A stretch of 64,000 nucleotides of DNA, from NCBI GenBank assembly GCA_041648735.1, contig JBAZOO010000003.1, positions 53,670 to 117,669 on the forward strand, given 5' to 3'. Origin of the DNA: Lentisphaeria bacterium (GTDB lineage Bacteria > Verrucomicrobiota > Lentisphaeria > Oligosphaerales > CAITYL01). Of this stretch, positions 10,637-47,215 are shown piece by piece; position 1 is the stretch's first letter, and every line of letters begins with the position of its first letter. Under the pieces are notes generated by a model that was not told where the DNA came from, ran no database searches, and worked only from the letters and a program-made list of their open reading frames with translations. A program made the translations under genes and the position numbers.

Positions 10637-10671
10637 GCATCATTCAATCCAGGAAGGAAGAGGGCGTAAAC

Positions 10672-24435: not shown

Positions 24436-24663
24436 CTTCATCCCCGGCGGCTTCCGCGCCAGCGTCGCCTGGCGCGCCACCAACTGCCGCTCCTCGTTGG
24501 CCGCGATCTCCCCGTTCAGCCGTTCGACCTCCGCGATCCGGTCGGCCATCAGCAACTGGCCGGGGTCATCCCCGGCCTGACGCTCCGACTTCCGCCCGAA
24601 AAGCCGCTTCGGCAGCTTCGCCACCAGCCGCTTGAGCCGGGCTCTCGGCGTCTTTGCGGTCAT
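24436..24663 (-). pseudogene. short ORF overlapping the DUF499 stop (ATGA); possible truncated IS66-like N-terminal fragment
   Basis: MTAKTPRARLKRLVAKLPKRLFGRKSERQAGDDPGQLLMADRIAEVERLNGEIAANEERQ... The LFGRKSE motif is reminiscent of IS66-family transposase N-termini. The frame stays open through repeat B and antisense across tRNA-Pro (to 24169), so there is no credible native C-terminus. Confidence 0.25.
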
Positions 24664-27600
24664 GTCACCCGGAATCCCGACTTCAGGTCCTCCAGGATCT
24701 TGTTGATCTCTGCGACCGTGCCCTCATCGGGAGTGTGTTCGGCATCGCCGACCTCGATGCGGACTCGGAACTTGATGGGGCAGCCCGACTTGCTCTTGAT
24801 GGCCAGGAGCTGGGGAACGGCGTCTCCGAGATCCTGGATCCCGGAAGGGTCAAGCTCCGCCTCTGCCCATTTGACATTGGTCTCGTGGACTTCCCTGCCA
24901 CCGGAACCACCGCCGTAGCCGCCGCCGTAGCCACCGCCCTTTCCGCCGCTCGTCGCGACCTTGAGCTTGACGCCTTGGGCGGAGGGGTACTCACACGGCC
25001 ACGAACCGGAGGTCGGATCCAGTTCCGTGAACCGGGCGTTCAGTGACGCCGCAATGACCTCGCGCACGGTCTTCCATGGGAGCGTCTTCCCTGACTTCTG
25101 CGACAACGCCGTGGCCACTGCGAGGGCAGTCGTCTGGTCGTTGGCCCATGCGTCCGGCAGGTTCGCGGGCAGGATCTCGGCGGCCGCGATCATCGCCGGT
25201 GGCCGTTGGAGAGAGGCCTGGTTGCTGAGCACCCCGGCAGGGATGGGTTCGCCGAGGATGCTCGCGGGCCCGCTCGTGAGCCAGAGCGCGCCCTCTTCCA
25301 CCGCCAGTGTGACGCCTGCCTTGACCACCTCCTCGCGGGCCTTGGGGATCGCCAGCGGCTCCATGTACCCATTCCGCTGGACCTGGACGATGTTGCCGCC
25401 CTTGAAGTAGTCCACCACGTCCTGCACGCTGATGGCCTCGCCCGGCCACAATCCGGGCAGGCGGCCAGGGGCAAGCAGGGCAGGCGGGATGTCTCCCAGT
25501 TCAGCCGCTTCCGGCAATACCAGTTCAAGCGCGGGATCAGCCATGGCCGCCTCGTCAGGGCGCGAGCGCCACCAGGTACGTACGGAACCGTCGGGACGGC
25601 TGAGTCTCAGCACGAACGATCCCGCGTCACACCCGGCGACAAGAGTGTCGGCGATGGCTTGGGCCTTCAGCATCTTGGGCAGGTGTGGCAACTGCGCGAA
25701 CGCCCCGGACAGGTCCTTGACGCGGCGGCTCGTCTCGCCCTCCCGCCACAGATTGTATGGGCCGTCCGGCAGTAGTGCCTCGGCGGTGATCGAAGAGTCC
25801 TGAATCCGGGATCGGGAGTCGTTCTTGACGATGGTGAAATGCGCGTCTTCGGTCACGTTGATCTTGAAGGCCTGCACCTCGTTCCTGTCCGAAACGGAGA
25901 CGACCGTGCAGTACGCCTGCTTCACCGCGTCGGGGATACGGCCCCGAGCCTTGTCGCTGCTGATGGTCAGGGTCTGCAGGCGCGCCACGTCGACGTTGCC
26001 GTCCTTCTCCTGCTCCTTCAGATCCGACCGGACTTCCTCCCATGCCAGATAGTCGCGGACCCTGGCCGACGCCACCTCCAGTCCGTCCCGCGACGGTGCG
26101 AGCAGGATCAGTGCATTGCGGTAAACCCGGGGTTTCTCCGGGCCGGTCGTCTCATCCAGGTAGCGTTTGGCCTCGGCGCTGGGTTTCCCCGAATCGCTGG
26201 TGGCGCTTGGCCCGAGGATGCCGAAGTGGAACGCTCCGTCGTCCTCGATGTCGCGCGGCCGCGTTGGCAGCAGGTGGACGCGGACGCCTGCTGCGGAAGC
26301 CCCGGCGCTCAGGGTCTTGCACTTGCCGACCTCATCGAGCAGTCGCGCCCGCACCACATCGTCGGACACCCGGCTTGCCGCCACGGCGTGCATCTGAGTC
26401 AAGTTGGGGCGATTCCCCAGCCGCCAGGTATCCGGCAGCAGGTTCTCCTCGGTGGCGGCGTACCGGTCGTCGAGCCAGAAGCTGGTCTGCGCCCAGCGCG
26501 TCAGTCCCTTCTCCAGTTCGATCCGGTCGGGACGGCTGGGGGCGATGAGCACCATCAGGTCCCGGGTGCGCGCACTCTGGCCAATCGGCTGGGAATGCAG
26601 GAAGGTGGCGACAACGGCCTGCTCGACCTCCCGGTAACGAAGCCCCACCGATTCCCGTTGGATGTCGCGAGCTTTGCCGGTCTCGCCTTCGATGATCCCC
26701 GTCCACGCCTGCTTCTTGCCCTCGTGCTCTTCGGTGTCCGCCACCGTCACCAGCTCCCGCATCGCCTCCGAAAGCCCTTCGCGCTTGGGGTCGGCGAGGA
26801 ACACGGCGGGCCCCACCAGGGGGCTGGTATCCCAGCGCTCCGCCTCCCGTAGCGCCAGGGCGAAGGTCCGCAAGACGCCCCGGGTTCGCTGGAAGCGATC
26901 CAGTTGCGTCCATTTCGCATAGAAGACTTCCGTGAGGTCGGGGTGGAACGGGTAACTCCTCAAGAAGCGCTCCTCGGCCTCCGCGCCCTGCTTCTTCGTC
27001 TGCTCGTCGATATCGAACACCCCCTTGATCGCCGCTTGGACGTGGGCGCGGAACGCATCCTTGTCCTTGATCGATTCGGGAGTGAAGAACCGGCGGCGCA
27101 GCACTTCGGCCACGTCCTCCTTCACCACGGGCTCGACGATGGCCTCGCGCTGGCGCTGGAAGATGTCGTACAGCTCGCCCTGCAACTGCCGCCCGAAGCT
27201 GTCGCTTTTCGCCGGATCGCTGGCCAGCAGCGAGGCCACGACACAGCAGCGGTCGACCTTGGTCGCGGCCTGGGTCAGGTACTGGAAGAAGTTCACCATG
27301 CGGTCGCGCCACTTGCGGTCGGCGGAGACCTTCTCCCGGACATACATCAGGACTTCATCGATCAGGATCAGCACGCCCAGACCTTCCTTGACCGGCAGTT
27401 CCAGCAGTTCGGTCAAGGTGTTCTCCGCCGGAGCGGACTCGCGTTCGTCTGGCGACTTCCCGGCATTGAGCACCCGCAGACCTTCCTCGCCCGCCAGTTG
27501 CCACGCCAGGATGCTCCACGGCTGCACCAGCCGCCGGGTGTTGCCCTGCGGGTTCCGCACCTCCATGCCGGTCTCGACATCCAGCTTGTCGAAGCACAGC

Positions 27601-28025
27601 CCGGCCACCCGCGCCCGCGGCGGAGCCTGGCCTGCCTGTGCGTCGCACGCAGACAGGCCGATGGCTTCCTGGAATTCATGCACGGCGGGCAGGTCGGGCA
27701 ACTTCTCCGGGTCGGTGACCAGGTGCCGGAGCGTGATCAGCGTGTGCGTCTTGCCGCCGCCGTAGGTCAGGCTGAGCTGGCGCACCGCCTTGTCGTTCTT
27801 GCCCGCCACCCGCAGCACCACGTCCCGCACCAGTTGGCGCAGGTTGTAGGTGGGGAAGGTCAGCGCAAAGAAGTTGCTCGGGTCTTCATAGGTGGGCCGC
27901 TTGCCGCCCTGCATCATGACTTCATACAGGTCCGCCGCGAACATGTGCAGCGGCAGTTCGCCGGACTTCAGGTCATCCCGCAAGGTGACGACTTCGTGCC
28001 AGCTCTTCCATGGGTTCTTAGCCAT
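24660..28025 (-). CDS. DUF499-type P-loop ATPase (BrxC/PglY-like)
   Basis: N-terminus MAKNPWKSWHEVVTLRDDLKSGELPLHMFAADLYEV....YEDPSNFFALTFPTYNL..L and Walker A LTYGGGKTHTLITLRHL, then Walker B-like VLILIDEVLMY. This is the pattern I recognise for DUF499/COG1483. AGGAGGA lies 8 nt upstream of ATG 28025. A Gly/Tyr-rich linker sits near the C-terminus. Confidence 0.85.
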   Translation of the reverse strand: MAKNPWKSWHEVVTLRDDLKSGELPLHMFAADLYEVMMQGGKRPTYEDPSNFFALTFPTYNLRQLVRDVVLRVAGKNDKAVRQLSLTYGGGKTHTLITLRHLVTDPEKLPDLPAVHEFQEAIGLSACDAQAGQAPPRARVAGLCFDKLDVETGMEVRNPQGNTRRLVQPWSILAWQLAGEEGLRVLNAGKSPDERESAPAENTLTELLELPVKEGLGVLILIDEVLMYVREKVSADRKWRDRMVNFFQYLTQAATKVDRCCVVASLLASDPAKSDSFGRQLQGELYDIFQRQREAIVEPVVKEDVAEVLRRRFFTPESIKDKDAFRAHVQAAIKGVFDIDEQTKKQGAEAEERFLRSYPFHPDLTEVFYAKWTQLDRFQRTRGVLRTFALALREAERWDTSPLVGPAVFLADPKREGLSEAMRELVTVADTEEHEGKKQAWTGIIEGETGKARDIQRESVGLRYREVEQAVVATFLHSQPIGQSARTRDLMVLIAPSRPDRIELEKGLTRWAQTSFWLDDRYAATEENLLPDTWRLGNRPNLTQMHAVAASRVSDDVVRARLLDEVGKCKTLSAGASAAGVRVHLLPTRPRDIEDDGAFHFGILGPSATSDSGKPSAEAKRYLDETTGPEKPRVYRNALILLAPSRDGLEVASARVRDYLAWEEVRSDLKEQEKDGNVDVARLQTLTISSDKARGRIPDAVKQAYCTVVSVSDRNEVQAFKINVTEDAHFTIVKNDSRSRIQDSSITAEALLPDGPYNLWREGETSRRVKDLSGAFAQLPHLPKMLKAQAIADTLVAGCDAGSFVLRLSRPDGSVRTWWRSRPDEAAMADPALELVLPEAAELGDIPPALLAPGRLPGLWPGEAISVQDVVDYFKGGNIVQVQRNGYMEPLAIPKAREEVVKAGVTLAVEEGALWLTSGPASILGEPIPAGVLSNQASLQRPPAMIAAAEILPANLPDAWANDQTTALAVATALSQKSGKTLPWKTVREVIAASLNARFTELDPTSGSWPCEYPSAQGVKLKVATSGGKGGGYGGGYGGGSGGREVHETNVKWAEAELDPSGIQDLGDAVPQLLAIKSKSGCPIKFRVRIEVGDAEHTPDEGTVAEINKILEDLKSGFRVT

Positions 28026-28073
28026 TATGCCAGTCCTCCTGCTCGGCATTGCGTCTTGGATTGCGTCTAACAA

Positions 28074-28154
28074 TCAAATAAAACGCAATCGTTGTTAATT
28101 ATATCTCTTTGTAATTTAGGCTATTACAACTGTATATCTTGGATAGCCTTTGCG
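28074..28154 (-). promoter_or_regulatory. AT-rich spacer inside the operon, candidate internal promoter/UTR for the DUF499 gene
   Basis: Hand count of 28081-28140 gives ~27% GC in a ~60-70% GC context. This and the 27-nt spacer at 35532-35558 are the only sizeable intergenic gaps in the otherwise overlapping/abutting gene string. Confidence 0.3.
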
Positions 28155-29804
28155 TCATAGCTTGGTGTCTTTCGTAGAAACGACGCAATCTGCCATAACA
28201 GTCATCGGGTACCATTTGCCGGCCCGTGTCGTTCCTTCCAGGCGAATACGGTTTTCGTGTTTGAGTTGCCGAACTAAAGCTTGTACTTGGCATCTGGACA
28301 GACTCGGCAAGACTTGGAGCAATTCTTCCAGGCGACTGCCAGTATTGGCATTGTCCCGAATATGTTTAAGCAGCAGCTCCTTGTTGGTTTCTCGGTCAAG
28401 GCCGCGCTTTCTGGTGTAAACGCCTTTTTTGCCGATGGTGGCATAGAACCGTCGTCCCAGAATAAAGCGTCCGTGCGCAACCCGTTCGATTACACCACGG
28501 TCAATCAGGAACGGAATCCGATCCCGCAGATTATCGGGAACTGGTTGATCGCGGCGGACATGGTTGACCACGAGAAAATCAGCCGTTCCAAAACTCTGAA
28601 GGGTCTCCAAGCCGATACGCTCCATCATGGTCAACAGTTTAGGGTCTTGAACCAGACCGTCTAAGGTCAAGGTCACATGCATGCGATCCGTGCCTCTGAA
28701 GTCCGGGAGAGCTTTGGCCTGCTTGACGCTCAACTCGAACATCAGGTTCATCCCCTGCCCCGATCGTTCGACAAGGCCACAACGCGCCAGGATGTCGGCG
28801 ATCCGCCGGTTGCGTGGCGACTGCCGATCCAGGATGTTTTCCAGGGTGATGTCCGGCGGGAAACCACCGGGGCTGTCCACAACGAGCCGTTGCGGGTACT
28901 GGCGAACGAAGACGGGGCCGCCCAACTGGTAGTCGCGGTGGCACACGGCATTCAGCACGGCTTCGCGCACGACCCGTTCATCAAAGGTGAGCACATCGAA
29001 AACGAAGAGTCCGTCCTGATAGTGCTGCTTACTGTTGCGCAGATTAATCAATTCCCACAGCCGGTCGTGAAACGCGAAGAGACCCTGCCGGAACTCATCC
29101 CGCTGTTGAGCCGGACCCGATGCTTCATTGGCCCGGTATTCAAAAATCACCTCGGCCTGCCCAAGCAGACGGCCAAGAGCCTCCCGACGGCCAAAGAGGG
29201 TTAGGGCGGCATAGGTGACACCCTTGTCGGTGATCGCCTCGCAGTCAAGCAGCAACTGCTCCTGCGACTTTGCCGCTATGCCTGAAGATCTCGACTTCTC
29301 CAGCCACTTTCGCCTGAACGCTTCAATGGCATCGCCGTCCAGATCGGTCAGGTCAGCCCCCTTGCATATGTCCGCCGAGAAATCATGACCGACTTCGGCG
29401 AAGATCGCCCGCATCTCCTCCATCGGCATCTCGACCAGACTGTCGCCTTCCCGCCACCAGGTGATCCCCTTGTCCTGGATGGGCACACCCACCGGACGCG
29501 GCGGGATGTCGAACACCAGTATGCGTTTGCCCTCGTGATTGAGCAGATGAAAGTCGACCCGCAGCCGCAACCGTTCCATCAGGCCATTGCGCGTCCGTTC
29601 CGGTTGTTCGAATGCCTTGCTGCCGACAACTTGGCGCGGGCGCTTGTCGGTAATCCCGAACACCACATAACCTCCACCCCGATTGGCCAGGGCGCAGGCA
29701 TACTTGGCCAGGTCGTCGAATTCAAAGGAGTTCTCAGCCCGTTTGAACTCGATATTTTCGCCTTCCTTGGCCTCCAACAGCCAAGCTATTTCGGGAACTC
29801 TCAT
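28155..29804 (-). CDS. COG2865-type regulator: AlbA_2/Schlafen-like N-domain + HATPase_c_4-like domain + C-terminal winged HTH
   Basis: EGENIEFKRAENSFEFDDLAKYACALANRGGGYVVFGI (AlbA_2 pattern), REAVLNAVCHRDYQLGGPVFVRQYPQRLVVDSPGGFP (HATPase_c_4 pattern), and a C-terminal helical wHTH-like region. The start overlaps the MTase stop (ATGA at 29801-29804). Sample lines are ~53-55% GC. Confidence 0.8.
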   Translation of the reverse strand: MRVPEIAWLLEAKEGENIEFKRAENSFEFDDLAKYACALANRGGGYVVFGITDKRPRQVVGSKAFEQPERTRNGLMERLRLRVDFHLLNHEGKRILVFDIPPRPVGVPIQDKGITWWREGDSLVEMPMEEMRAIFAEVGHDFSADICKGADLTDLDGDAIEAFRRKWLEKSRSSGIAAKSQEQLLLDCEAITDKGVTYAALTLFGRREALGRLLGQAEVIFEYRANEASGPAQQRDEFRQGLFAFHDRLWELINLRNSKQHYQDGLFVFDVLTFDERVVREAVLNAVCHRDYQLGGPVFVRQYPQRLVVDSPGGFPPDITLENILDRQSPRNRRIADILARCGLVERSGQGMNLMFELSVKQAKALPDFRGTDRMHVTLTLDGLVQDPKLLTMMERIGLETLQSFGTADFLVVNHVRRDQPVPDNLRDRIPFLIDRGVIERVAHGRFILGRRFYATIGKKGVYTRKRGLDRETNKELLLKHIRDNANTGSRLEELLQVLPSLSRCQVQALVRQLKHENRIRLEGTTRAGKWYPMTVMADCVVSTKDTKL

Positions 29805-32800
29805 GCCTGTTCCTCCAGTGCGAAACGACCCTGTTTGTCATCCTTCACCGCCCCGCGTGCGCCGATGTGGTTGCTGAGGCTTTCCAGTAATGTACGCTCT
29901 TCGCTGCCACGCTCGGACAGCTCGATCAGGGACTGGACGAGGCGGCGGAACAGCTCGTGGCGGCGGAGGCCATTGTCGTCCAGGTATTCGTCGACCTTGT
30001 GGACGTCGCCCGCCCGCCAGAGGTGCATGAGCCGATGGATGCGGTCGATCAGGGGGACCGGACGGCCTGCCTGCCGCGACGCACTCGGCGCAGGCAGGCC
30101 GCTCGGCGCATCATAGCCCATGTTCCGACCCTGGCGCTGCGACCACGGCTTGAGCCTCATCTGGCCGCCGGAACTGGTGCCGCCAGAGTCGCTGTCCTCA
30201 TCGTCGGACAGGTCGGACTCGTCAGACGCGTCGGACTCATCCGCAAGCGGGACGCTTGCGCCACCCTTGGTCGAGATCAGATCCCAGGTGACTTCAAGGT
30301 CGTGATCGGAGATCCCGCAGGCGGTGGCGTAGAGAATGCAGGCTCCGGCGGGGGCTTCCTCGAGCCCGAAGTCATGGCGGTGCAGCAGGTAGTAGGCGGT
30401 CGGGCTGTCCATGTCTCCCAAGGGTGGCGCAACCGTCCCGGTTGCGATCTCTCCGGATGGCAAGCGGGACGCTTGCCCCACCATTACCTCACCAACGACG
30501 AAATCCACCACCATGCGGCGCACGTGGACGAGGAACTCGCCCACGCTCATGATCTGGCCGGGATCGTTGGCCTTCTTGACCACCGGGTGTTTGCTGTAGG
30601 CCTCCAGCGCCGGGCCGGTCGCGGCCCAGACAAAGTCCGGCCCGCGAATCCCCGCGTCCCAGAAGTCCCGCAGCCGCGTCGTGATATTGGCCCGCATCTC
30701 CTCCAGCACCCGGTTGTCCCAGCCCAGCCTGGCGGCGGTGGGGCGCTTTCGGCAGACAATCCACAGGGAGGAGGCAAGGGCGGCGGAGGCTATGCCTCTT
30801 GTCCGGTTCGCCATCTCTGTCTGGATCGGCCAACTGCCGTCGACGATGAAACCCGCCCGGATTATCGCCGACGCCAGCGTCTCCCATGCATCAGGATGCT
30901 TGTGAGCGAAAACAATGACGAGGCGGCCATCCGGCTGGAGGCTCTTCTCGCAGGCCACGAAGGCCCGCGCCATGCCGTCCTCGTAGGCAGCCTTGGACTT
31001 CTCCGCATCGCCGCCGTGGCGGCTGGAATCGTCGATCAGTTCACCGTCATTGGCCTCACGGTCCCATTTCGGCGACGTACTCGCCGCGAAGACCGAGGAA
31101 GGATCCAGCCGCGTGCCATGGACAACCCGTTTGATCCAGACGTAGAAGAAATCCATGCAATCGGAATAGGGAATGGCATCGTAGTAAGGCGGGTCCGTAA
31201 GAACAAGATCAAAGTTGCCAACAACGGTTTCTGTTGCTGAACGCTTCTGCACGGTCGGCTTGGCCAGATCACCTCCGGTATTGACCGCCGTATCAACTGA
31301 CCTGGTTACCGATCCCAGCATCGACTCCCAACTGCCTGATGCACCACCGATAGGATTAGTCTCGGCACAATCCCACTTGATCGGCAGGGCAAAACGGTTG
31401 AACAAGTGCGTGATCTGTTCGTTCTGGGTGTACCAGGATGCCAAGGAGCTTCCATAGTCAAGCATCTTGCTCATAACGCAGGCCAGATATGCCGCAGCGG
31501 CTTCGCGCCAGTCGGGCGGCAAGGCGGCGTCGCTGGTGGCGGTGACGCCCCGGATCTGCCGCACCAGCGTCCCCAGCGCCAGCAACTGCCGCGAGGTGAA
31601 CAGGTCGCACCACCGCATAAGGCCATAGCCCTGGATGGAGAACGCCCGACCCGCGCCACTGCCGCCCCCGGCGGGTGTGGGTTCCGTGGGCAACCCAAAC
31701 GGGATCTCGGCGAAGACGCGCTCAAGTTCGGCTGCGGCGCGGCTGGCGCAGTCGATCTCATGGGCGGTCGGTAGACGGTAGGCTTTGCTGGTCTGGCTCT
31801 CGGTGACCACGGCGGTGGCGACCATCCCCAACCGTCCGGCTTTGCCCTCGAACCGGATGTCCTCCATGGTCATGATGGCCGAGCAGCAGGGACACTGCGC
31901 CCCGGCCCGGGACATGGTGCCCGCGCCGATCCGCTTGTCGTGCTCGCGGCGCTGGGCGGCGTTGCCTCCCTGGGCCGGGACATCGGCGTCGATGCCAAAG
32001 ACCAGGGTGGGGCAACCGTCCCGGTTGCCATCTTCCTGCTCCACCTTCGCAAGCGGGACGCTTGCGCCACCCTTCACCTCCATGGTCAGCAGCACGCGCT
32101 TGTTGGCCTTCTTGCAGAGCCACCGAGTCTTGAGCAGCGGCACGGTAGCCCGGCAGTTCTTGCAGGTGACTGTGCGGGCCCAGAGATAGGCGACCGTCGG
32201 CTTGGCCACCCAACGCGGGTTCCGCTTGTCCGCCAGGTACTCCGCCGAGAACTCGGCGTTCAGCGCCTCGAGGTTCGGAGTGCCGTCGTCCTTGAGCGGC
32301 ACCAGACGCATCAAGGGTGGGGCAAGCGTCCCGCTTGCCTTCTTCTGAAAGCTCCAGAGCTGCTCGACCCTGGCCGTGTCGTACTCGCCCGCCCGAGCAC
32401 TCCCGACAACCGGGTTGTTCATGATGTACTGCTCGATCCGCCACAGGGACTGCGGACTCCGCACGATATGGTCGTAGCTCTCGTGCTGCCAGAACTCGCC
32501 TTCCCGGCCAAGGAGCTTGTTGATTGCATGGGCGGTGAAGGACTTCCAGGAATGCAGCACGTCGGAGAGGGTGTGGTTGTCCCTCGGTCTGACCAACGCA
32601 TGGACATGGTTGGGCATAATGCACCATGCCCCCAAGTCGTACCGACTCCCATCGAAATGCATCAAGGTGTCCGCGACGATCCGGCGAACCTGCGGACTCC
32701 GCAGATGGCACTCGCCCTCGCCAGCGTCCAGCCATGCCTCCATGCGATCATTGAAGAGACGGTAATACTCTTTGCGGAGTTCGGGGGTCAGTTCCGACTC

Positions 32801-33946
32801 CGGGTGAGCCGCCAGCCACGCTTCCCGTTCGCGTCGCCATTGTTCGAGTCTTGGCTTTGGGATGGAATCCGCAAGGCGGAAGGTGACAAAGAAGGCTGTG
32901 CCGGGCTGTGTCCAGTGGGGCAGCCGGCGTTCTCGGATATCGACTGGTTCGTAGGGATTGAAGTACAGAGTATCGTTGGCCCAAGATGATGGTGGGGCAA
33001 GAGTGGGGCAGCCGTCTCGGTTGCCATTTGCCTTTTCGGAATCCGCAAGCGGGACGCCACCCCTTTGCAGAGGCTCCAAGTGCGCGTAGGTCGGGTAGAA
33101 GGTTGCCAACTCCTTGCGCGCCTCGTTCAGCACCCAGCGTCCCCAGGCGCGGACGTGCCAGGCGAGGTCGGCCTTGGGGGCGCGCCCGGAGTCCGGCTTG
33201 ACGAAGCCCGGGATCCAGCTCTCATCTTCCCTGAGCTGTTTCCTCGTCTTCTTCGTGCGGCCGACCAGCTCCGGGTGCGCCCGGTAGAACTCCTCCATGA
33301 AGGCTTCGTCGGCGAGGATGAAATCCGGCAGCGGATGGGTCTTGCCCGCCAGCTTCTGCGGGTACTCCAGCGTGCACTTGAGGATGAACCAGGCGACCGG
33401 GTTGATGTCCACCGCCGTCGCCTCGCAGCCGAGCCGCATCGCCTCGAGCGGGATGGCCCCGCCACCCGCGAACGGGTCGAGCACGCGCGGCGCGCGGCCG
33501 CCATAGGCCTTGCGGATTTCGTCCCGGAACCATTGCAGTTCCTGCTCCCGGTGCGCGACGATCGCCCGGTGCTCCTTGAGCTTGCTCGCACCGCCGGATT
33601 TCGGCTCGGTGCCGATCCAGTTCAGGATGCCGCCCTCGACTTCCTCCTTGACCACCTCAATCACCTTGCCATCCGGCATCTTCTTGCGCTCGGTCGTCTC
33701 CACCACCTTGCCGCCGATGCGCTCGCACAGATCCCGGCGTTTCTCCGGCGTTCCCGGGTCGGGCAGCAGCGTCGCGATCAGCGCCGCCCGGCAAGCCGCC
33801 AGCGGCCGCCGCGCGGGCCAGATGTGCAGCGTCGAGATATGCCCATGCCGCACATTCTTCTCATGCACCGAAGTCAGCGACGCCTGCTTCAGCGGGAAGG
33901 CGTGCTCGATCAGGCGGGGGGAGTCATTGGATGGAATAGTTGACAT
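29801..33946 (-). CDS. DUF1156 / COG1743-type amino-methyltransferase with Zn-ribbon, carrying an in-frame RAYT domain and in-frame REP insertions
   Basis: N-terminus [43 protein letters not shown] (DUF1156 hallmark). SAM motif I [15 protein letters not shown] (33443-33484), Zn-ribbon CKNC...CPCC, motif IV [10 protein letters not shown] (DPPYY at 31181-31195). At 1381 aa it is about 400 aa longer than I expect for the family; the excess is explained by the insertions listed separately. Confidence 0.85.
   Translation of the reverse strand: [1381 protein letters not shown]
30242..30266 (+). repeat. REP1 half element (unit A-prime) inside MTase CDS
   Basis: CGCAAGCGGGACGCTTGCGCCACCC, with hairpin GCAAGCG-GGA-CGCTTGC. 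It encodes [10 protein letters not shown] in the MTase frame. Confidence 0.8.
30423..30482 (+). repeat. REP1 full element inside MTase CDS
   Basis: GGTGGCGCAACCGTCCCGGTTGCG ... GCAAGCGGGACGCTTGCCCCACC, two ~24-nt units in inverted orientation, each an internal hairpin. It encodes [21 protein letters not shown] in frame. Confidence 0.85.
32006..32072 (+). repeat. REP1 full element inside MTase CDS (between the two halves of the Zn-ribbon)
   Basis: GGTGGGGCAACCGTCCCGGTTGCC ATCTTCCTGCTCCACCTT CGCAAGCGGGACGCTTGCGCCACCC. It encodes [25 protein letters not shown] (aa 625-647), and the nucleotide and amino-acid coordinates agree. Confidence 0.9.
32317..32340 (+). repeat. REP1 half element at the downstream edge of the embedded RAYT
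   Basis: GGTGGGGCAAGCGTCCCGCTTGCC. It encodes [11 protein letters not shown] in the MTase frame. Confidence 0.8.
32991..33063 (+). repeat. REP1 degenerate full element at the upstream edge of the embedded RAYT
   Basis: GGTGGGGCAAGAGTGGGGCAGCCGTCTCGGTTGCCATTTGCC...CGCAAGCGGGACGCCACCCC, with a partial duplication and a 5-nt deletion in unit A-prime. It encodes [27 protein letters not shown]. Confidence 0.75.
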
Positions 33947-35083
33947 CTATGAAAGGGCCTCCACGAGAGAGAAAGCGTCCGCCAATGTGGCGACCGAAGA
34001 TCCGGGGTAGCGACGCCATGAACCTTGCCCATGCTTAGAACGTTCAACTACGACTTCCTGTCCAGTCTTGCCGGCCTGTCGCACGCGCCAATCCCATCGG
34101 CGCCAGTCCGAGGCGGTGTAGACTCCCGCCTCGTCCGCAAGCCAGTTCGGTACGGTGATGCGGGTCAAGTCGGATAGGAATTCAGACGCGGAACGAGGAC
34201 GCTTGCTGCAGTCTGGATTGGTGGTAGCCCGCACCAGCCGGGACAGTTTGCTGGAGAAGTACGGCCGGGGCGTCCTCCCGTGCTCCAGCAGTTTGCCCCG
34301 ACGTGAAAAGTCAGCGATGCCATCGTCCACTGCACGAGACTTCTCGAAAGAATCCATCGTCGAGAAAGTCAGCTTCCGCCGGCGCAATTCCGCCTTCTTG
34401 GAACGGGAGAGGTAGTGCTCGTCATGGTAGTCCAGTTGACCGTTCACCAGTTCGTACAAGACCATTCCCACTTGGTAGAGATCGGATTGGGTCAAGTACT
34501 TGGACGGCGTTTCCCATCCCTCTGGCGGAACGTATAGAACGGAGTGCTTGGATGCCTGGATCGGTTGGTCATCCCCGGCCAGCAATGCCACCGACCCAAA
34601 ATCAGAAATTCGCGGGGTGTTCCCATGAAGCAGGATATTCGCTGGTTTGAGGTCGCGGTGGACCATCTGCTGCAAGTGTAGATGGGCAACCCCGGTCAGG
34701 ATACCCGCTGTTACCCTGACCGCGTCCTGTTGACCGAGGGGACCGTCAGATATCTTCCCGAGCAGGCTAACCCCAGAGACATATTCCATCTGAAGACACA
34801 GGAACTGGGATGAGTTAACCGTCATGATCTCGGCATCAAATACTTGAACCAAGTTCGGGCAAAGGGATGGGGCTTTCGTCGCCTCCACAAGCAGTCGTGG
34901 CTCGCGCAGCACACCGGAGCGATTTTCGTGTATGTAGTCATAGACCTTGAGGAAAACATCCCGGTCAAGGTGCGTGTGGCGGGCTTTGAACGCGAACGCA
35001 TTCGCACCTTCGTGGATCTCCACTAGATCGGCATACTTTCCCGTAGCCTTCAAGGCATCACTGATCTGACCGGTTGTCGCCAT
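33947..35083 (-). CDS. Ser/Thr protein kinase (Hanks-type) with uncharacterised C-terminal domain
   Basis: VFLKV (VAIK-like Lys), catalytic loop VHRDLKPANILL, DFG as ISDFGSV, PPE (APE-like), DLYQVGMVLYEL. The stop TAG abuts the MTase ATG (33947/33946). Start MATTGQ at 35083, 1 nt after the upstream stop. A sample line is ~48% GC. Confidence 0.85.
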   Translation of the reverse strand: MATTGQISDALKATGKYADLVEIHEGANAFAFKARHTHLDRDVFLKVYDYIHENRSGVLREPRLLVEATKAPSLCPNLVQVFDAEIMTVNSSQFLCLQMEYVSGVSLLGKISDGPLGQQDAVRVTAGILTGVAHLHLQQMVHRDLKPANILLHGNTPRISDFGSVALLAGDDQPIQASKHSVLYVPPEGWETPSKYLTQSDLYQVGMVLYELVNGQLDYHDEHYLSRSKKAELRRRKLTFSTMDSFEKSRAVDDGIADFSRRGKLLEHGRTPRPYFSSKLSRLVRATTNPDCSKRPRSASEFLSDLTRITVPNWLADEAGVYTASDWRRWDWRVRQAGKTGQEVVVERSKHGQGSWRRYPGSSVATLADAFSLVEALS

Positions 35084-35084
35084 C

Positions 35085-35531
35085 TTACATGACACTCCAC
35101 GCGCAATATGTGGCTCTTTCGACATATTTCAATGCTATCGGTTTTCCACCCCAGAAGGCCGCCTCCATCGTTGCACCCGCCGTGCCCGCGAATTTCTTCT
35201 GCTTGCTGGCAACCGTCTGCGGTGCCACAAGAAGACAGGGTACACTTGCCTGCTTTGCCGCCAACTGGACTACGCATTCCATCTTGCACCGAGAGACCGA
35301 ACAACCTTTATCAACTGCTCGCAATACGGCCACTTTTTCGATCTTCTTGTCACGAATCACCGCATGGACAATGTCTTTCAGCCGCAAGAGGTTCCCCGCG
35401 TCATCATTTTCAGACTGGGGAAATGGTTGCTTTGGCACATCGAGGTTCTCAGCCCTCCCGCCACTGGCGGTACCGTCCAAGATGACCCAGACCAAGTCAG
35501 AGGCATGGATATCAACACCGAGTACTCTCAT
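35085..35531 (-). CDS. small RNase H-fold / RuvC-like protein (DUF3010-like, tentative)
   Basis: MRVLGVDIHASDLVWVIL (beta-strand with Asp, like the first strand of RNase H-like folds), KIEKVAVL....CKMECVVQLA. The resemblance to DUF3010 is from memory only. 148 aa, lower GC, abuts the kinase gene. Confidence 0.45.
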   Translation of the reverse strand: MRVLGVDIHASDLVWVILDGTASGGRAENLDVPKQPFPQSENDDAGNLLRLKDIVHAVIRDKKIEKVAVLRAVDKGCSVSRCKMECVVQLAAKQASVPCLLVAPQTVASKQKKFAGTAGATMEAAFWGGKPIALKYVERATYCAWSVM

Positions 35532-35558
35532 TGCCGGCTCCTTGTTGTCTTATCACTG

Positions 35559-35712
35559 TTACACCACCCCCGCTTCGGTCACTTGCTGCTGCGAGATGCT
35601 TACCCCACCCGTCTCAATCGTGGCCGTGATCGTTCGGGTGACGGCTTGGCTCTTGCTGAACGGGCGGACGAGCAGCTTGTCGAACGGATCCTGCACCCGC
35701 ACGAGTTGCAGT
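35559..35712 (-). repeat. orphan duplicate of the helicase 3-prime end (~154 bp)
   Basis: Aligns with 36817..36970 and includes a 46-bp identical block GGCTCTTGCTGAACGGGCGGACGAGCAGCTTGTCGAACGGATCCTG; overall identity is ~80-85% by eye. It encodes [48 protein letters not shown], versus the helicase C-terminus [48 protein letters not shown]. Confidence 0.85.
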
Positions 35713-35720
35713 GACGCGCG

Positions 35721-35734
35721 CACGGCGTGCCGTG
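35721..35734. repeat. REP2 palindrome (degenerate) downstream of RAYT2
   Basis: CACGGCGTGCCGTG, a variant of CCACGGCATGCCGTGG. Confidence 0.6.
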
Positions 35735-35792
35735 GGCGTACCGATGGGACAGCGCTAGGTGCCCCAAGTGCGCGGGATAGGGGGGGGGCAAG

Positions 35793-35808
35793 CCACGGCA
35801 TGCCGTGG
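35793..35808. repeat. REP2 palindrome downstream of RAYT2 stop
   Basis: CCACGGCATGCCGTGG, a perfect 16-bp palindrome, 26 nt beyond the RAYT2-SLOG stop. Confidence 0.8.
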
Positions 35809-35833
35809 CCGTGCGGATGGGGACTGGGGGGCA

Positions 35834-36814
35834 TCATAGGTACACCACCTCCTTTTCCGGGTTGGCCTCGGAGAGGAGGCAGGCGAGCATGCCGTCGGGG
35901 TTGAGGTTGCCCACGACGAGGCGGTCGCAGTGCTCGATGACGTACTGGTTGCACCAGACGGCGCGGCGGGCGTTGGGGGTATCGAGCCCGGCATCGAAGG
36001 GTGAGGCCAGCAACAGGCGCCCCTCGGCCAGGGCCACTTCCGCAGCACCACGGCATGCCGTGATGCCACCAACGGCATCCAACCCCCAGGGCACGACCCA
36101 GACCATGGGGCGGCGGTGTTCGAGGCAGGCCTTGAACACCGCCTGCTCCATGGGCGAGAGGAAGCCGGAAATGACCGCTTCGCCGGGCTTGAGCGGCAGC
36201 CTGCCATGCGGGTTCTCCTCGCCACGCGAGGCGAGGAAGCCCACCTTTGGCAGGTCCAGAAGGGCGCGGTTGCCGAGGTACTGTGGCTCGGCGCCCTGCA
36301 TGACAGCGGCGAAGTTCTCGGGATTGTGGCGAATGTAGGCACGAATGTTCTCTCGCGCGGCATCGTCGCGGGCCCGCATGTCGTAAAACCGGCTCTGCCA
36401 GAGCTTCTCCCCGAGGGCGCGGGTGACCGCGCCCTTGTACGAGCGCAGGATGGTTGGTATCGAGCCGGCCACTGGCTTGCCGAAGGCCTCCATACGGGCA
36501 CGGCATGCCGTGGCCCCACGTGCCGTGGCCCCGACGAGTTGCAGCAGGCCATGCACATGATTGGGCATGACCACGTACTCGTCCAAAACGGCCCGAGGGA
36601 AATGCGCCGGGATTTCGCGCCAGCACCGGTCCGCGACCTTGCCGGCCTCGTTCTGCACCATGTGCCCGCTGACGACCGTGCCGAAGACCGAGCGCATGTT
36701 CTGGGTGCAGATGGTGAGGAAATACCAGCCGGGGCTGGAGTAGTCCCAGCCCTGGAGGCGGAGGTTCTTGCGGCGCCCCACGGCATGCCGTGGGGGCGCG
36801 GAAAGCGTCGGCAT
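35834..36814 (-). CDS. RAYT (IS200/IS605-type Y1 HUH transposase) fused to a DprA/SLOG-like Rossmann domain
   Basis: N-terminal half: LQGWDYSSPGWYFLTICTQN, HUH VMPNHVHGLL, Tyr motif LWQSRFYDMRARDDAARENIRAYIRHNP. C-terminal half: VGFLASRG.....AVISGFLSPMEQAVFKACLEHRRPMVWVVPWGL...ALAEGRLLLASPF......RRAVWCNQYVIEHCDRLVVG, which resembles DprA/SLOG topology by eye. The ATG at 36814 lies 2 nt after the helicase stop. Confidence 0.7.
   Translation of the reverse strand: MPTLSAPPRHAVGRRKNLRLQGWDYSSPGWYFLTICTQNMRSVFGTVVSGHMVQNEAGKVADRCWREIPAHFPRAVLDEYVVMPNHVHGLLQLVGATARGATACRARMEAFGKPVAGSIPTILRSYKGAVTRALGEKLWQSRFYDMRARDDAARENIRAYIRHNPENFAAVMQGAEPQYLGNRALLDLPKVGFLASRGEENPHGRLPLKPGEAVISGFLSPMEQAVFKACLEHRRPMVWVVPWGLDAVGGITACRGAAEVALAEGRLLLASPFDAGLDTPNARRAVWCNQYVIEHCDRLVVGNLNPDGMLACLLSEANPEKEVVYL
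36048..36062. repeat. REP2 palindrome inside RAYT2-SLOG CDS
   Basis: CCACGGCATGCCGTG. Confidence 0.7.
36499..36528. repeat. two adjacent REP2 palindromes inside RAYT2-SLOG CDS
   Basis: CACGGCATGCCGTG (36499-36512) and CCACGTGCCGTGG (36516-36528). They encode GATARGATACR. Confidence 0.7.
36776..36795. repeat. REP2 palindrome, perfect 20-mer, at the 5-prime end of RAYT2-SLOG
   Basis: CCCCACGGCATGCCGTGGGG, within codons 7-13 of the gene (PPRHAVG). Confidence 0.85.
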
Positions 36815-36816
36815 GG

Positions 36817-39800
36817 CTACACCTCCCCCGCTGCGGTCACTTGCTGCGGCGAGATGCGCACTCCGCCAGACTCGACCGTCGCCGTGATCGTCCGGGGGAC
36901 GGTCTGGCTCTTGCTGAACGGGCGGACGAGCAGCTTGTCGAACGGATCCTGTACCCGAACCAGTTGCGGGGTCGGGGTAGCGCAGTGATAGGCCACGTAG
37001 AGCCAGTAATCGTCGCGCAGATTGCAGGCGCGGGCCCACTCGTTGTCGGTGACTTCGATCTCGCCGATGGATGCCCGCCCCTTGACCTCGATGCAGCGGC
37101 GATCAAAGGTGGGGCAACCGTCCCGGTTGCCATCTGCGGAGTTCGCAGGCGAGACGCTTGCGCCACGCTTTGGCCGCAGCGAAAGGATGTCGAACCCCGG
37201 ATTCTCGGGAAGCCCCGCAGCGCGGGCGAGTTCGGGCGTATGGACAAAGCGCACGTCCGCCCCCGACGCTTCCTCGTAGGCCTTGACCAGGTTCATGGCG
37301 ATCTGTTCGACGTTGGCATCGAGCCGTTCGCGGTCGGCCTTGGCGGCGGAGGGCACAACGAGGGCATGGGCGATGAAGTCCGTGTTGCCGGGCACCAGCA
37401 GCTCCGGTTCGCGGCGGATGATCGCCAAGGCCCGGTCCCGACGGTCGTGCAGTTCGCGCTGCTGATCCTTGATCCGGGAGAGTTCAGCGGCGGCCCCCTT
37501 GTTCCCGTCCCGCGCTTTCGGGGTGAGCTTGGCCCGCGAGGCCGCCAGTTCCGCTTCCTGGAAGTCGAAGCCACGTTCCACAAAGGACTCACGCTTGGGC
37601 AAGGCGGCCATCATCTGGTTTCGGCGGTCGACGGCCATCCCACGGCAGACCCGCTCCATGAGGTAGGCGTTGGCTTGATCGCGCAGCTTGGTTGCCGCCA
37701 CGGCCAGGCGCTGGGCCTGCGGAGGCAGCCCTTCGCCACCGCGCAGGAGCAGCAAGTGTTCCACGGGGCACAATGAAATGTCGGCCCCTTCGGTCTGACG
37801 GACTCCGACGAGACGGCACACGACGGTTTCCTCGTGAGCCAGTCGAGAAGGTGGGGCAACCGTCCCGGTTGCCGTCTTGTCGGTTGCGGAGTTCGCACGC
37901 GGGACGCTTGCGCCACACTCGGGATCGGCTTTCCGTACCACAGTCAGGCGGGCCAGGTGGAAGAGGTAGGGTTTGTCCGCCGTGGGATCGACAAAGACGG
38001 CACCCCGGAGGGCGTCCCGCCCCAGCCGCTGTCGCACCAGTTCGCGGAAACGCTCGAAGACCGGCTCGCCGGGATGCATCCAGATGCAGGACTGCCGGCC
38101 TGCCGGCGCCGCGCCCGTCGCGGCAGGCAGGTCATCCGGGCGCTGGACAGAAAGGTGCCGCGACATGGTGGGCGAATAGGCGTCCATGGCTTCAAACAGT
38201 GGATCGGCCGCCCCTTTCCTGGCGGGCACGAGATCGAAGGTTGAGCCGAGATCGCCGTCCACTTCGATGCCGACCTGCGGGGCGGCCGATTCCACAAAGC
38301 GGCGGACATAGCCGGGGAGCAGGCGGAAGAACGTTTCATGCTCGATTCCCTCGCGCAGGCGCGGCAGTTCTCTTTTGACGTCCCCGCCATCGCCATAGAG
38401 GCGCCGCTCGCGTTCCTCGATGGCCTTGACCTGTTCCTTGGTCAACTGACCGTCGAGTTCCTCGGCCACGGCCTCGGCTCCGTCCCGCAGCGCCCGCTCC
38501 ATGTAGTCCTTGATCGAGACCCCCACGAACACGCGGCCGATGCTGTCGAAGACCTTGTCGGACTTGAGCTGCTTACGGATCTTCTCCAGCTTGTCGAGCA
38601 GCGTCTTGAGCACTCGGCCTTCGCGGGTCGCGGGGGCGATCAGGTTGACGATGCACACGGGATCGTGTTTCTGCCCGTAGCGATGAATCCGCCCCATGCG
38701 CTGTTCAAGCCGGGCCGGGTTCCAGGGGATGTCGTAGTTGACCATGATCCAGCAGAACTGGAGGTTGACGCCCTCGGCGGCGGCATCGGTACAAACCATC
38801 AGCCGCGCTCCCCCCTCGGCGGCGGGAAGGCGGAAACGCTCGATCTGGTCTTGGCGCTCCGTGAAGTGCATGCCGCCGTGAATCTGGGCGATGTGGCCCG
38901 CGTATCCCATGCCGCCGAGTCGGCGCACCAGGAAGTCCATGGTGTCGCGATGCTCGGTGAAGATGAGCATCTTCTCCTGGACGTAGCGGCTGTCCGTGAT
39001 CACTTCACGCAGTCGGTCGAACTTGGACTCGACTCCGGCGTCATGGACGTGCTGGGCGAGGTTACGAAGCGCGACGACCTGTTCGCGTTCCGCGAGGAGT
39101 TCCGCCAGGGACTCGGCGATGACTCCCTGGAGCAGCGTGTCTTCGGCCGCCTCATTCTCCTCGACCCCTTCGGTGGTGCTCTCCTCGTCGGCCGCCTTCG
39201 ACTCGAAGACATCGTCGTCCTCTTTGATCCGGCACTGAAGGGTGAGCAACTGTTCGATGGTGAGTCGTCCAGCCTGGATGTCCTCGATGATCTGGTCCAG
39301 CTTGCCGAGACGACGTTTGAAGGAACACAGCAGCGCATAGGTCGAACTGGCCAGGCGGCGCTGGAACACCCCCATGGCCAGGCGGGCGGCGGACTGGTTG
39401 AGCACCTTGGCCTTGTTGTAGACGTGGCGCAGGTACTCGGTGGTCTCGTCGTAGAGACGCTGCTCACCGACTTCGCCAGCGGAAAGCTGGAAACCGAGGG
39501 TGTCGCATTGCCGGATCGGGTACAGAGGCTGACCGTCCAGGCGAACCATCTCCTCCTTGGTACGGCGGATGAAGTAGTGCTGCCGTCGCTCGGTCGGGAA
39601 GTGCTCGAAGGCCTCGAGCGTCGTCAGGACGTCGGGTTCGAGCAGCCGCCAGAGCGCGTAGTACGGGTAGTCCTTGCCCATGTGCGGCGTGGCGGTCAGG
39701 AGAAGCAAGTGGTGGGCATGCCATGGCAGAGAAAAGGTGGGGCAACCGTCCCGGTTGCCATCTTTCGTGGGGCAACCGTCCCGGTTGCCATCTTTCGCAA

Positions 39801-40671
39801 GCGAGACGCTTGCGCCACCATTGTAGACACCCGCGAGAGCCTCGGCGAGTTTATAGCGGGATGTCTTTCGGATACGGAAGTCGTTGCCACGGTCACAGGC
39901 GAGCTTGTGCGCTTCGTCGAAGACGACCAGCTCGTAGGGCGCAACGGCATCTTCGGCCAGCCGCGCGAAGACGCGTTCCCCCGCCAACGTATCGACACTT
40001 ATGATGACGCGCTCGCTGCCGGGGCCAGCGAATGGATTCCCGTTCTTCGCGTCCTGCCCGGTGACAATGCGGAATGGCAGGTTGAAGAGGACCTGCAGTT
40101 CCCGCTGCCAATTGCCGACCAGTCCAGCCGGAGGCACAATCAGCACGCGGGACAGCAGTCGCCGCGACAGCATCTCGCGCACGTACAGGCCGGTCATGAT
40201 CGTCTTGCCCGCGCCCGCGTCGTCGGCCAGCAGGAAGCGCAACCGGGCATGCGGCAGCATCCGGTCGTAGACTGCGATCCGCTGATGCGGCAGCGGATCG
40301 ATACTCGAGATCTCGGTGGCGAAGGTGGGGTTGGCCAGGTGGCCGAAGGATAGGCGCTCGCCTTCGACCAGAACGCGGACCACTTCAGGCTTCGCGGTGA
40401 AGTCCAGCAGCGGCGGTTCCGCAGTGCAGGGCGGCGGCTCCGGCTCAGCGCCCCCCGACCCTGCGGCCCTTTCCTTGTCGCCCTCGTCCTTGCTGAGATC
40501 GAGGATGGCTTGCCAGGACAACTGCGATGGACGCGACTTCCCGTTCTCCCACCGGTTGACCGTGGGGAACGACACTCCCAGGCGTTCGGCCAGGGCGACC
40601 TGCGTCAGCCCCAGCTTCGCCCGCAGACCCTTGATCTGCTCTGGATAGTCGTCTGTCATTCCGTCCGCCAT
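36817..40671 (-). CDS. XRE-type HTH + SNF2-family helicase + C-terminal DUF3883-like (PD-(D/E)xK-like) domain
   Basis: HTH [33 protein letters not shown]. Helicase motif I [13 protein letters not shown], motif II [9 protein letters not shown], motif III [8 protein letters not shown], motifs V/[13 protein letters not shown]...[24 protein letters not shown]. C-terminal [36 protein letters not shown]. Start at ATG 40671 (alternatives 40659 or 40779). Carries three in-frame REP1 elements. Confidence 0.85.
   Translation of the reverse strand: [1284 protein letters not shown]
37108..37166 (+). repeat. REP1 full element inside helicase CDS (C-terminal nuclease-like region)
   Basis: GGTGGGGCAACCGTCCCGGTTGCCATCT...CGCAGGCGAGACGCTTGCGCCAC. 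It encodes [23 protein letters not shown]. Confidence 0.85.
37850..37916 (+). repeat. REP1 full element inside helicase CDS
   Basis: GGTGGGGCAACCGTCCCGGTTGCCGTCT...CGCACGCGGGACGCTTGCGCCAC. It encodes [24 protein letters not shown]. Confidence 0.85.
39736..39819 (+). repeat. REP1 element with tandemly duplicated unit A inside helicase CDS (between helicase motifs II and III)
   Basis: GGTGGGGCAACCGTCCCGGTTGCCATCTTTC GTGGGGCAACCGTCCCGGTTGCCATCTTTC GCAAGCGAGACGCTTGCGCCACC. It encodes [31 protein letters not shown]. Confidence 0.9.
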
Positions 40672-40918
40672 GTCCGAAAGCTGCCTCCAGTTGGGTGGCA
40701 AAAGAACATGAACCAGACTATAGCGTCTGATATATCGCCGGCCAAGCCCCCACGCGATGACTGCCACCGGCCGACCCATGCAGGCCCCGCGCAGGCCCGC
40801 ATCGAACAGCTTCGGGCGCGGTCATGGAAGCCGGCGGCGGCTTGGCTGGCGACCGTCGGAGAAGGGTCGGAAGGCGGCGCGCGCCCAATGACCTCTCCGA
40901 GGGCAAGGCGGGGTGTTT

Positions 40919-47026: not shown

Positions 47027-47215
47027 CCACACTCCCGGCTCCGGACGATCCCACTCCCGGCCGCGGCACCATTGCCGCCCCCCGGCGGCCACCGGCCGGC
47101 ACAAGGGTAGCGCCCGCCCGCGCGAGTTCGTAGCACCGACACGCATGAGGCGCAAGAGACGGCCGTGTCAGCGCGGCTGCCTCTTGTCGCTCTCAATGTG
47201 ATTGTTGGGCAGATA

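Follow-up and report, generated by a model that had tools for sequence, protein, structure and literature searches.

The subject of this report is a stretch of 64,000 nt from a metagenome-assembled genome of a Lentisphaeria bacterium (contig JBAZOO010000003.1), referred to in the following as the window, and within it the gene hmaB (29801..33946, minus strand). The gene is open for 1381 aa and encodes the DUF1156 N6-adenine DNA methyltransferase of an Hma anti-phage system, which is DUF499-centred and related to BREX. It is the host of an insert that consists of a doublet of repetitive extragenic palindromic (REP) elements, a REP-associated tyrosine transposase (RAYT) and a further REP. Judged from sequence comparison, this segment is probably a REPtron without canonical start or stop codon, which is tolerated in the reading frame of HmaB, within a loop that is permissive and poorly conserved.

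For a more general proposal the balance tips slightly in favour. RAYTs would have a second lifestyle, as stop-free, in-frame REP-RAYT-REP cassettes in large proteins, which are expressed only within the host polypeptide, pass from one allele or loop to another and give rise to in-frame REPs in neighbouring genes. Their hosts would be above all restriction-modification and defence methyltransferases and also essential enzymes, their distribution would resemble that of inteins with nothing suggesting splicing, and hmaB would be one well-preserved example.

The insert in hmaB and its empty site

In an alignment against homologues lacking a RAYT, the insert extends over 756 nt (32312..33067, minus strand; aa Q294-L545), a place designated site A. 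It stands in for about 12 aa of an ancestral loop with the consensus NLKNPMPYEPQE, between FYPTYAxxEPL and MRLVPLKDD, and its boundaries are identical in all five aligned proteins with a RAYT at this site. The first-pass annotation of this DNA, made from the letters alone, had placed the insertion at aa ~296-545 and asked whether orthologues lack it. The segment is missing from about 98 of the best 120 HmaB homologues. The nearest methyltransferases without RAYT, 84–89% identical in the core, have clean ancestral loops with no footprint. Therefore, the segment does not belong to the conserved make-up that is normal for this family.

The length of the insert is a multiple of 3 and its reading frame, that of hmaB, contains no stop; the remaining five frames hold 1–8 stops each. 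The earlier statement that the unit shares strand and frame with the host gene, without a stop, is thus correct. However, overlapping spurious open reading frames (ORFs) of >300 aa exist in the same G+C-rich region, and the lack of stops is for this reason weak evidence when taken alone. The decisive evidence is the conservation of the insert across orthologues together with the ratio of nonsynonymous to synonymous substitutions (dN/dS). This ratio was calculated according to Nei and Gojobori among P0001, P0002 and P0003, genes having been fetched for four site-A orthologues and one relative without RAYT. It amounts to 0.04–0.09 for the RAYT segment, at near-saturated synonymous sites (proportion of synonymous differences, pS, 0.57–0.72), to 0.10–0.11 for the N-terminal and to 0.14–0.19 for the C-terminal part of the methyltransferase. 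By this measure, purifying selection on the RAYT is shown to be equal to or stronger than that on its host. Furthermore, the frame is open in all five site-A carriers, one of them at 50% G+C. Low dN/dS and an open frame in all carriers together indicate that the host enzyme and the RAYT have both been kept functional since these lineages split, and that the insert is not decaying.

All parts that had been claimed for the continuous 1381-aa ORF were located in the translation: the DUF1156 domain (Pfam, aa 16-66, 64 bits), the S-adenosylmethionine (SAM) motif I DPFAGGG (aa 157-163, nt 33478-33458, minus strand), the Zn-ribbon cysteines CKNC (aa 595-598) and CPCC (aa 685-688, likewise minus strand) and motif IV TDPPYY (aa 917-922, nt 31198-31181, minus strand). 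Motifs I and IV show no variation across 21 aligned homologues. This bears on one of three readings offered at first, according to which the insertion inactivated the methyltransferase and the frame stays open only from the scarcity of stops in G+C-rich DNA. Such a dead gene would fit the spurious ORFs nearby and a degenerate REP on the left of the RAYT (see below), but it is refuted by the dN/dS of 0.04–0.19 in all three segments, and the open frames of the five orthologues, the invariant motifs, the complete Hma operon and the 24 and 27 stops which the other two coding-strand frames hold over the whole of hmaB all count against it. We regard it as very unlikely.

A different concern is that the source is a metagenome-assembled genome and REPs are repeats, via which an assembler might have wrongly placed a RAYT locus within the methyltransferase gene. 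At about 25 nt, however, REPs fall short of the k-mer lengths that assemblers usually employ. HmaB is 100% identical to NCBI MFA4943389.1 (Lentisphaeria), and the identical protein is recorded in NCBI, JGI, Logan and ENA on 3 contigs. Orthologues at 81%, 77%, 59% and about 67–70% identity, from other samples, share the junctions of the insert, and embedded RAYTs are found on megabase contigs as well (locus L028, 1.18 Mb). Independent samples, divergent sequences and identical junctions exclude a misassembly, which we take to be extremely improbable.

The stretch of aa 291-399 offers no in-frame ATG, GTG or TTG, and no stop occurs before that of hmaB itself. Since it has neither a canonical start nor a stop of its own, the RAYT is probably translated only as an internal domain of HmaB. 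RAYTs are characterised as free-standing genes, and in this feature the present one deviates, with host sequence in frame on both flanks. Inteins are marked by a nucleophile at the junction and a His-Asn signature. An intein- or intron-like element, removed after transcription or translation, would share with the insert the in-frame position, the recurrent sites, the patchy distribution and the residence in large conserved, often essential proteins. Yet Pfam detects no Hint or intein domain in HmaB, the junction residues (L293/Q294 and L545/M546) lack the intein signature, and removal from the RNA would leave no selection for frame and absence of stops, both of which are always kept. We therefore give an excised element hardly any credence; the RAYT domain presumably stays in the mature HmaB. 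The sequence NPYEP at the RAYT N-terminus was considered as a remnant of the host's NPMPYEPQ and dropped, as free-standing RAYTs share a YF(N/D)PxxP motif.

The RAYT module proper (32351..32989, minus strand; aa 320-532) is colinear with complete free-standing RAYTs of about 200–230 aa, with 50–62% identity over 85–99% of the length. On the insert, the Pfam model Y1_Tnp (PF01797) scores 33.4 bits (cut-off 23), the NCBIfam model REP_Tyr_transpos 64.1 bits, which is below its equivalog cut-off of 80, and the NCBIfam model transpos_IS200 17.6 bits, under its threshold of 55. By these scores the insert is a member of the Y1/RAYT superfamily outside the curated NCBIfam equivalog. An AlphaFold (AF2) model of aa 293-560, built on 85 relatives, shows a domain whose core has a predicted local distance difference test (pLDDT) score of >90, between linkers of low confidence: most of the left, REP-encoded linker is <50 and the right one about 60. 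Its best match in the PDB by Foldseek is 4ER8_A (E 3e-6), followed by IS200/IS605 TnpA structures; the TM-score is modest (0.53 on the target) owing to an extra helical insertion. The structure 4ER8 is that of the RAYT from E. coli in complex with a REP hairpin. Thus, hidden Markov model and fold searches agree with the original call of a complete RAYT-like module. The module carries a helical insertion of about 70 aa and an N-terminal 'LPHW' region, both typical of relatives from the PVC superphylum, i.e. Planctomycetota, Verrucomicrobiota, Lentisphaerota and kin.

The HUH motif had been read correctly as PNHVHALV. Its codons for H447-V448-H449 (32600..32608, minus strand) align to PEHMHCIW of 4ER8, and the histidines are invariant (as H155/H157) in the family alignment of 85 sequences. 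The tyrosine had been misassigned: the proposed FWQHESYDHIVRS (FWQHESYDH) is a conserved WQxxxxxH motif whose Tyr is replaced by Phe in many relatives. The predicted catalytic residue is instead Y507 in RIEQYIMNNP (32426..32428, minus strand), which corresponds in the alignments to DYIYINP of 4ER8 and, in ISDra2 TnpA, to Y132, and is invariant in the 85 family members (Y215 of alignment A3). The anchor Y132 is given by the title of PDB 2XO6, which names the ISDra2 TnpA mutant Y132F. Methyltransferases and RAYTs were aligned separately (alignments A3 and A4); a single alignment of full-length methyltransferases with free-standing RAYTs (A2) had placed the RAYTs against the methyltransferase C-terminus and was discarded.

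A larger model of aa 1-720 has a mean pLDDT of 62, probably since truncation at this point cuts through the methyltransferase fold. Here, too, linkers of low confidence (283-343 and 512-548) enclose the RAYT segment. This model is too weak for placing loop A, or a second loop, B (see below), on the surface of the enzyme, and no solved structure related by sequence to the RAYT-less homologue P0004 was found on which the two sites could be mapped. That the insert is tolerated in a surface loop is the best supported of the three readings first offered.

REP1 elements in hmaB and hmaA

The REPs at the RAYT belong to a family, REP1, with a 5' GTGG tag followed by an 8-bp stem with a 3-nt loop (GGTGG[CG]GCAA[CG]CGTCCCG[CG]TTGC); the single-strand sequence is GGTGGGGCAAGCGTCCCGCTTGC. 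For this genome the REP1 census covers the 64-kb window, in which the pattern GGTGGSGCAASCGTCCCGSTTGC has 14 matches where 0.01 are expected. Two of these lie beside the RAYT, at 32316-32338 and 33002-33024. The first-pass annotation had described REP1 hairpins on both sides, which holds except that in this gene the left element has decayed. The right hairpin GCAAGCGGGACGCTTGCCCCACCC (32317..32340, minus strand; translated ASGTLAPP) is perfect, with -9.6 kcal/mol and z -3.5 against shuffles, and the alignment shows it kept in orthologues. The left doublet (32991..33063, minus strand; translated GGVPLADSEKANGNRDGCPTLAPP) is degenerate and folds no better than shuffles (z +0.2). In P0002, P0003, P0018 and P0006 the left REP is intact, yet it is read there in differing frames (NRDGCPT or ATETVAPP), which argues that the DNA element is conserved and not the peptide. 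The flanking REPs are conserved at the nucleotide level in five orthologues whose G+C ranges over 50–64%.

Further in-frame elements are found elsewhere in hmaB. An inverted REP1 doublet (REPIN; 32006..32071, minus strand, z -4.9) occupies the loop after the first Zn-ribbon, designated site B, where other HmaB homologues hold a RAYT. Another inverted doublet (30423..30482, minus strand, z -5.4), absent from most homologues, is situated in a C-terminal variable loop, and a single REP1 (30243..30265, minus strand, z -4.0; GGASVPLA) in the acidic C-terminal linker. Three clusters lie in frame in the neighbouring gene hmaA (37108-37167, 37850-37917 and 39736-39819, minus strand), recognised as pattern matches and by REP-derived peptides in the translation. 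Beyond the two sites that flank the RAYT, the in-frame clusters number six (for example NGGASVSLAKDGNRDGCPTKDGNRDGCPTF). The total is eight, five in hmaB and three in hmaA, all of which keep the frame; doublets or triplets occur five times in the window. All 14 copies are contained in these two genes, i.e. in 8.1 of 64 kb, with 0 in the other 56 kb. For eight randomly placed clusters the chance of this is (8.1/64)^8 ~ 7e-8. Hence REP1 is a multi-copy tagged palindrome with inverted doublets, as REPs are, but its location is not extragenic. At a related locus, L001, all 10 REP1 copies lie in the methyltransferase and DUF499 genes. For Marinomonas, a clustering of REPs in the vicinity of a recently arrived REPtron has been reported (PMC8266576).

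The following course of events would fit a REPtron tolerated within HmaB. The RAYT would be produced only inside the HmaB polypeptide, joined to it by disordered linkers that the REPs encode. It may still bind and cleave REP1 single strands and seed local REP1 copies; an activity of the RAYT on REP1 would explain why this family is confined to hmaB and the adjoining hmaA. Strong selection on the host genes would restrict the surviving insertions to those that preserve the frame and land in tolerant loops. A RAYT might enter at an existing in-frame REP doublet through exchange between REPs, which would explain the presence of a doublet in one gene and of REP-RAYT-REP in another, as well as the differing RAYT lineages in sister genes. 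The RAYT of hmaB is the single one of its type in the window; it is old, has diverged together with its host gene and has no recent identical copies.

Embedded RAYTs in related and unrelated proteins

Among the best 120 HmaB homologues a RAYT is present in 22, in 5 of them at site A and in 17 at site B, and those without it show short ancestral loops and no footprint. The RAYT-bearing genes are patchily distributed over the methyltransferase tree. The site-A RAYTs form one clade beside free-standing RAYTs, and the site-B RAYTs two unrelated clades, from which we conclude at least three independent captures. Moreover, RAYT similarity is incongruent with that of the host genes: between P0040 and P0029, identity amounts to 73% in the methyltransferase core and 90% in the RAYT, between P0040 and P0063 to 76.5% in the core and 54% in the RAYT. 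Thus, the module is mobile with respect to its host gene. Where one of the two loops holds a RAYT, the other often has REPs.

Other modules have been gained in this family, too. In alignment A1, a GIY-YIG nuclease module of about 90 aa lies in frame in P0017, P0027 and P0035. It takes up three positions in all, one being site A itself, one a few residues downstream of this site and one further upstream. In the same alignment, P0025 and P0047 have an N-terminal Macro-domain extension on the DUF1156 methyltransferase. The DUF1156 methyltransferase family is a hot spot for the in-frame gain of small nuclease modules.

The embedded arrangement is by no means unique to hmaB; it recurs in the HmaB family and far beyond. 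In a profile scan of one genome per species, we considered the best 80 RAYT loci, a sample biased by its selection for similarity to the query. About 38 of these 80 are embedded in frame in large proteins, and in 35 the RAYT lies within a stop-to-stop ORF of at least 555 aa. Pfam domains of the host share the frame of the RAYT, usually on both sides. By these domains, the hosts are restriction-modification enzymes (Eco57I/MmeI-type, HsdR, a type ISP enzyme, N6_N4 methyltransferase), and housekeeping proteins (DnaE, CarB, ValRS-/LeuRS-type synthetases, MetH, PriA, IspG, PdxA, adenosine deaminase, an MqnA-like and a FabA-like protein). CarB is the host at five loci, four of which have the RAYT at one common site. 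Hairpins flank nearly all embedded RAYTs; in simple cases the flanks are reverse complements of each other, in opposite orientation.

An independent library of 1.84 billion cluster representatives, in which clustering at 50% inflates fast-evolving hosts, gave a similar picture: by our own count, 68 of the best 150 matches are proteins of at least 400 aa with an internal RAYT. Of 17 long library proteins that were scanned, 11 are Eco57I/MmeI-type enzymes, the others LeuRS, HypF, a DinG-like helicase and three unknowns. The list of RAYT homologues furthermore contains in-frame fusions to D-Tyr-tRNA deacylase, type I R and S subunits, exonuclease VII and a B12-binding enzyme, and REP-derived peptides stand at the junction in all such fusions inspected. 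Despite the biased samples, the in-frame embedding of RAYTs is clearly widespread.

In case of the deacylase, one RAYT clade is fused to the C-terminus via a REP-derived linker, the deacylase stop being lost, to give about 370 aa in total. Such fusions form nine separate 90%-identity clusters (P0136, P0142, P0169, P0187, P0193, P0194 and P0207, and the shorter P0154 and P0191). Restriction-modification is by far the commonest single host class, with Eco57I/MmeI-type IIG/IIL, type ISP, type I HsdR and N6_N4 methyltransferase enzymes; it comprises the loci L018, L010, L013, L012, L024, L052, L016, L034, L047 and L056 and the proteins P0244, P0253, P0261, P0279, P0290, P0297, P0357, P0242, P0258, P0281 and P0296.

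These host lists bear on the third reading offered at first, a functional co-option in which the HUH/Y1 domain now does work for the defence enzyme. The domain might recognise invading DNA in hairpinned single-stranded form, or nick it, or tether the methyltransferase or the Hma complex to REP hairpins as a mark of self. The strong purifying selection on the RAYT domain and its catalytic residues would be expected then, and the same methyltransferase family acquired a RAYT independently at least 3 times, while other homologues carry a GIY-YIG nuclease in frame around site A, N-terminal to the Zn-ribbon. The marked enrichment of Eco57I/MmeI-type, type ISP, HsdR, HsdS and N6_N4 methyltransferase hosts points in the same direction, although the clustering at 50% identity inflates fast-evolving restriction enzymes in the representative library. 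However, the same RAYT family resides in enzymes whose substrate is not DNA (CarB, MetH, IspG, PdxA, aminoacyl-tRNA synthetases, adenosine deaminase), so that no defence role is required; methyltransferases 84–89% identical do without a RAYT; different RAYT lineages are interchangeable at one loop; and the module is always bracketed by REP DNA, like an ordinary REPtron. A domestication into defence is thus not needed by the evidence and appears unlikely to us, the preference for restriction-modification methyltransferases being what keeps it under consideration.

Several observations weigh against the reading of a tolerated REPtron. The same 12-residue replacement, with the same boundaries, is found in five proteins of distant methyltransferase subclades. 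This needs recombination between alleles or a site-specific mechanism, and no such site-specific mechanism behind the shared site-A boundaries could be identified. The trees are neighbour-joining trees without support values. In the left REP doublet of hmaB, one arm of the first REP is gone and the second REP shows 2–3 mismatches; given this degeneration, the RAYT cassette in hmaB may no longer be mobile as a unit. Finally, restriction-modification or defence methyltransferase hosts account for 10 of the approximately 38 embedded genome loci and for the 11 Eco57I/MmeI-type enzymes among the 17 sampled library proteins, an over-representation which a pure tolerance model does not predict. It could reflect a functional link, hitch-hiking on mobile genes or clustering bias.

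Known elements and the Hma locus

Compared with the REPtrons known from E. coli (yafM, PDB 4ER8), Pseudomonas and Stenotrophomonas, the element in hmaB has the same HUH motif, the Tyr in a C-terminal helix and the Y1 fold. It also has REP hairpins on both sides and REP copies concentrated near the RAYT, as reported for the REPtrons of Marinomonas (PMC8266576). In contrast to the known RAYTs, which are free-standing and intergenic with their own start and stop, it is read as an internal protein domain. Palindromes lying in frame in apparently functional genes are likewise seen with the Rickettsia palindromic elements and the intragenic REPs of Opitutus terrae, dimers encoding 20–30 aa being a frequent form (PMC3733652). 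Those reports concern the repeats alone, whereas in hmaB the repeats enclose, in frame, the gene of the transposase as well. With inteins the element has in common that it is an in-frame, nuclease-type element in large conserved proteins, at recurrent sites, patchily distributed and dependent on host expression; unlike inteins, it has neither a Hint domain nor splice residues and sits in variable loops, not in conserved active-site motifs. The IS200/IS605 elements with their Y1 transposase TnpA belong to the same HUH/Y1 superfamily and possess subterminal hairpins at both ends. They differ by a Tyr motif Y-x3-Q, where the RAYT has Y-x3-N-P, and by near-identical multiple copies instead of a single diverged one.

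RAYTs are held to be single-copy, free-standing, domesticated transposases of unknown cellular role. Our results suggest that they are often carried and conserved as internal domains; if so, the enzyme presumably works tethered in a 150-kDa protein, and its expression would track that of specific host genes. The list of hosts hints at what retains the modules, namely genes that can be neither lost nor broken, and mobile restriction-modification genes. The enrichment of the latter raises the idea that defence islands may carry REPtrons from genome to genome. Domain combinations such as 'DUF1156 + Y1_Tnp' or 'CarB + Y1_Tnp' are insertions and not new enzymes, surveys of defence systems should expect REPs, RAYTs and GIY-YIG modules inside methyltransferases, and loops A and B are natural permissive sites for engineered domain insertions.

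In-frame REPs in genes are already known; the in-frame embedding of a RAYT appears to be undescribed. The first-pass annotation was aware of no RAYT inside a methyltransferase, and we found no description in open-access papers and bioRxiv either, which is absence of evidence only. A survey of DUF499-centred systems makes no mention of HUH, RAYT, transposase or GIY-YIG inserts in the methyltransferase (PMC12839542), and an earlier paper on RAYTs remarks that its authors had set aside long RAYT proteins, taking them for fusions or errors (PMC6006769). In JGI, HmaB and some homologues are labelled 'adenine-specific DNA methylase/REP element-mobilizing transposase RayT'. The architecture is visible in databases and seems not to have been interpreted.

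Apart from the RAYT insert, which sets it apart, hmaB is a regular member of its family, with HmaA and HmaC alongside. The HmaB profile of PADLOC gives 383.6 bits for the 1381-aa ORF; the NCBIfam equivalog DUF1156_antiphage gives 150.5 bits, under its threshold of 1000. The feature set of the family is present, that is, the DUF1156 N-domain, SAM motif I, the DPPY motif IV and, in the operon, an SNF2 helicase and a DUF499 ATPase. The former is encoded by hmaA (36817..40779, minus strand; PADLOC HmaA 475 bits) and the latter, an AAA+ ATPase that completes the Hma system, by hmaC (24660..28073, minus strand; PADLOC HmaC 248.5 bits). Between the core genes lie those for a Ser/Thr kinase related to the mad6 and PD-T4-6 families (33947..35125, minus strand) and for a Schlafen-AlbA_2/HATPase_c_4 protein (28155..29804, minus strand). 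All five genes are on one strand and the operon is intact. The name 'DUF499-centred BREX-related' for Hma systems is a recent one (PMC12839542).

The gene that separates hmaA from hmaB varies across every related locus showing the gap: an OLD-like ATPase and a UvrD helicase are found there in L006, Schlafen-AlbA_2 proteins in L001 and L007. This gap gives the impression of an accessory slot with changing content. In parts of the Hma island (28000-36000), as well as at 6000-11000 and 47000-48000, G+C is 0.53–0.59, against 0.65–0.75 elsewhere, as would fit DNA acquired by horizontal transfer.

A second RAYT, of a different type (35834-36814, minus strand; 327 aa if the start is ATG 36814; NCBIfam REP_Tyr_transpos 49 bits), begins 3 nt past the hmaA stop. 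Beyond this second RAYT, at 35560-35716, the terminal 157 nt of hmaA (36818-36974) recur with 86% identity, at a distance of 1258 nt downstream. Apparently, a segment with a RAYT entered hmaA close to its 3' end and brought a substitute for this end along. A second REP family, with the palindrome CACGGCATGCCGTG, has 5 copies, where 0.04 are expected, all of them at 35721-36792 (1.1 kb) in and around this RAYT. Three of its REPs lie in frame in the second RAYT ORF, one as the N-terminal codons PPRHAVG and the others further in, as GATACRARM and GGITACRGA.

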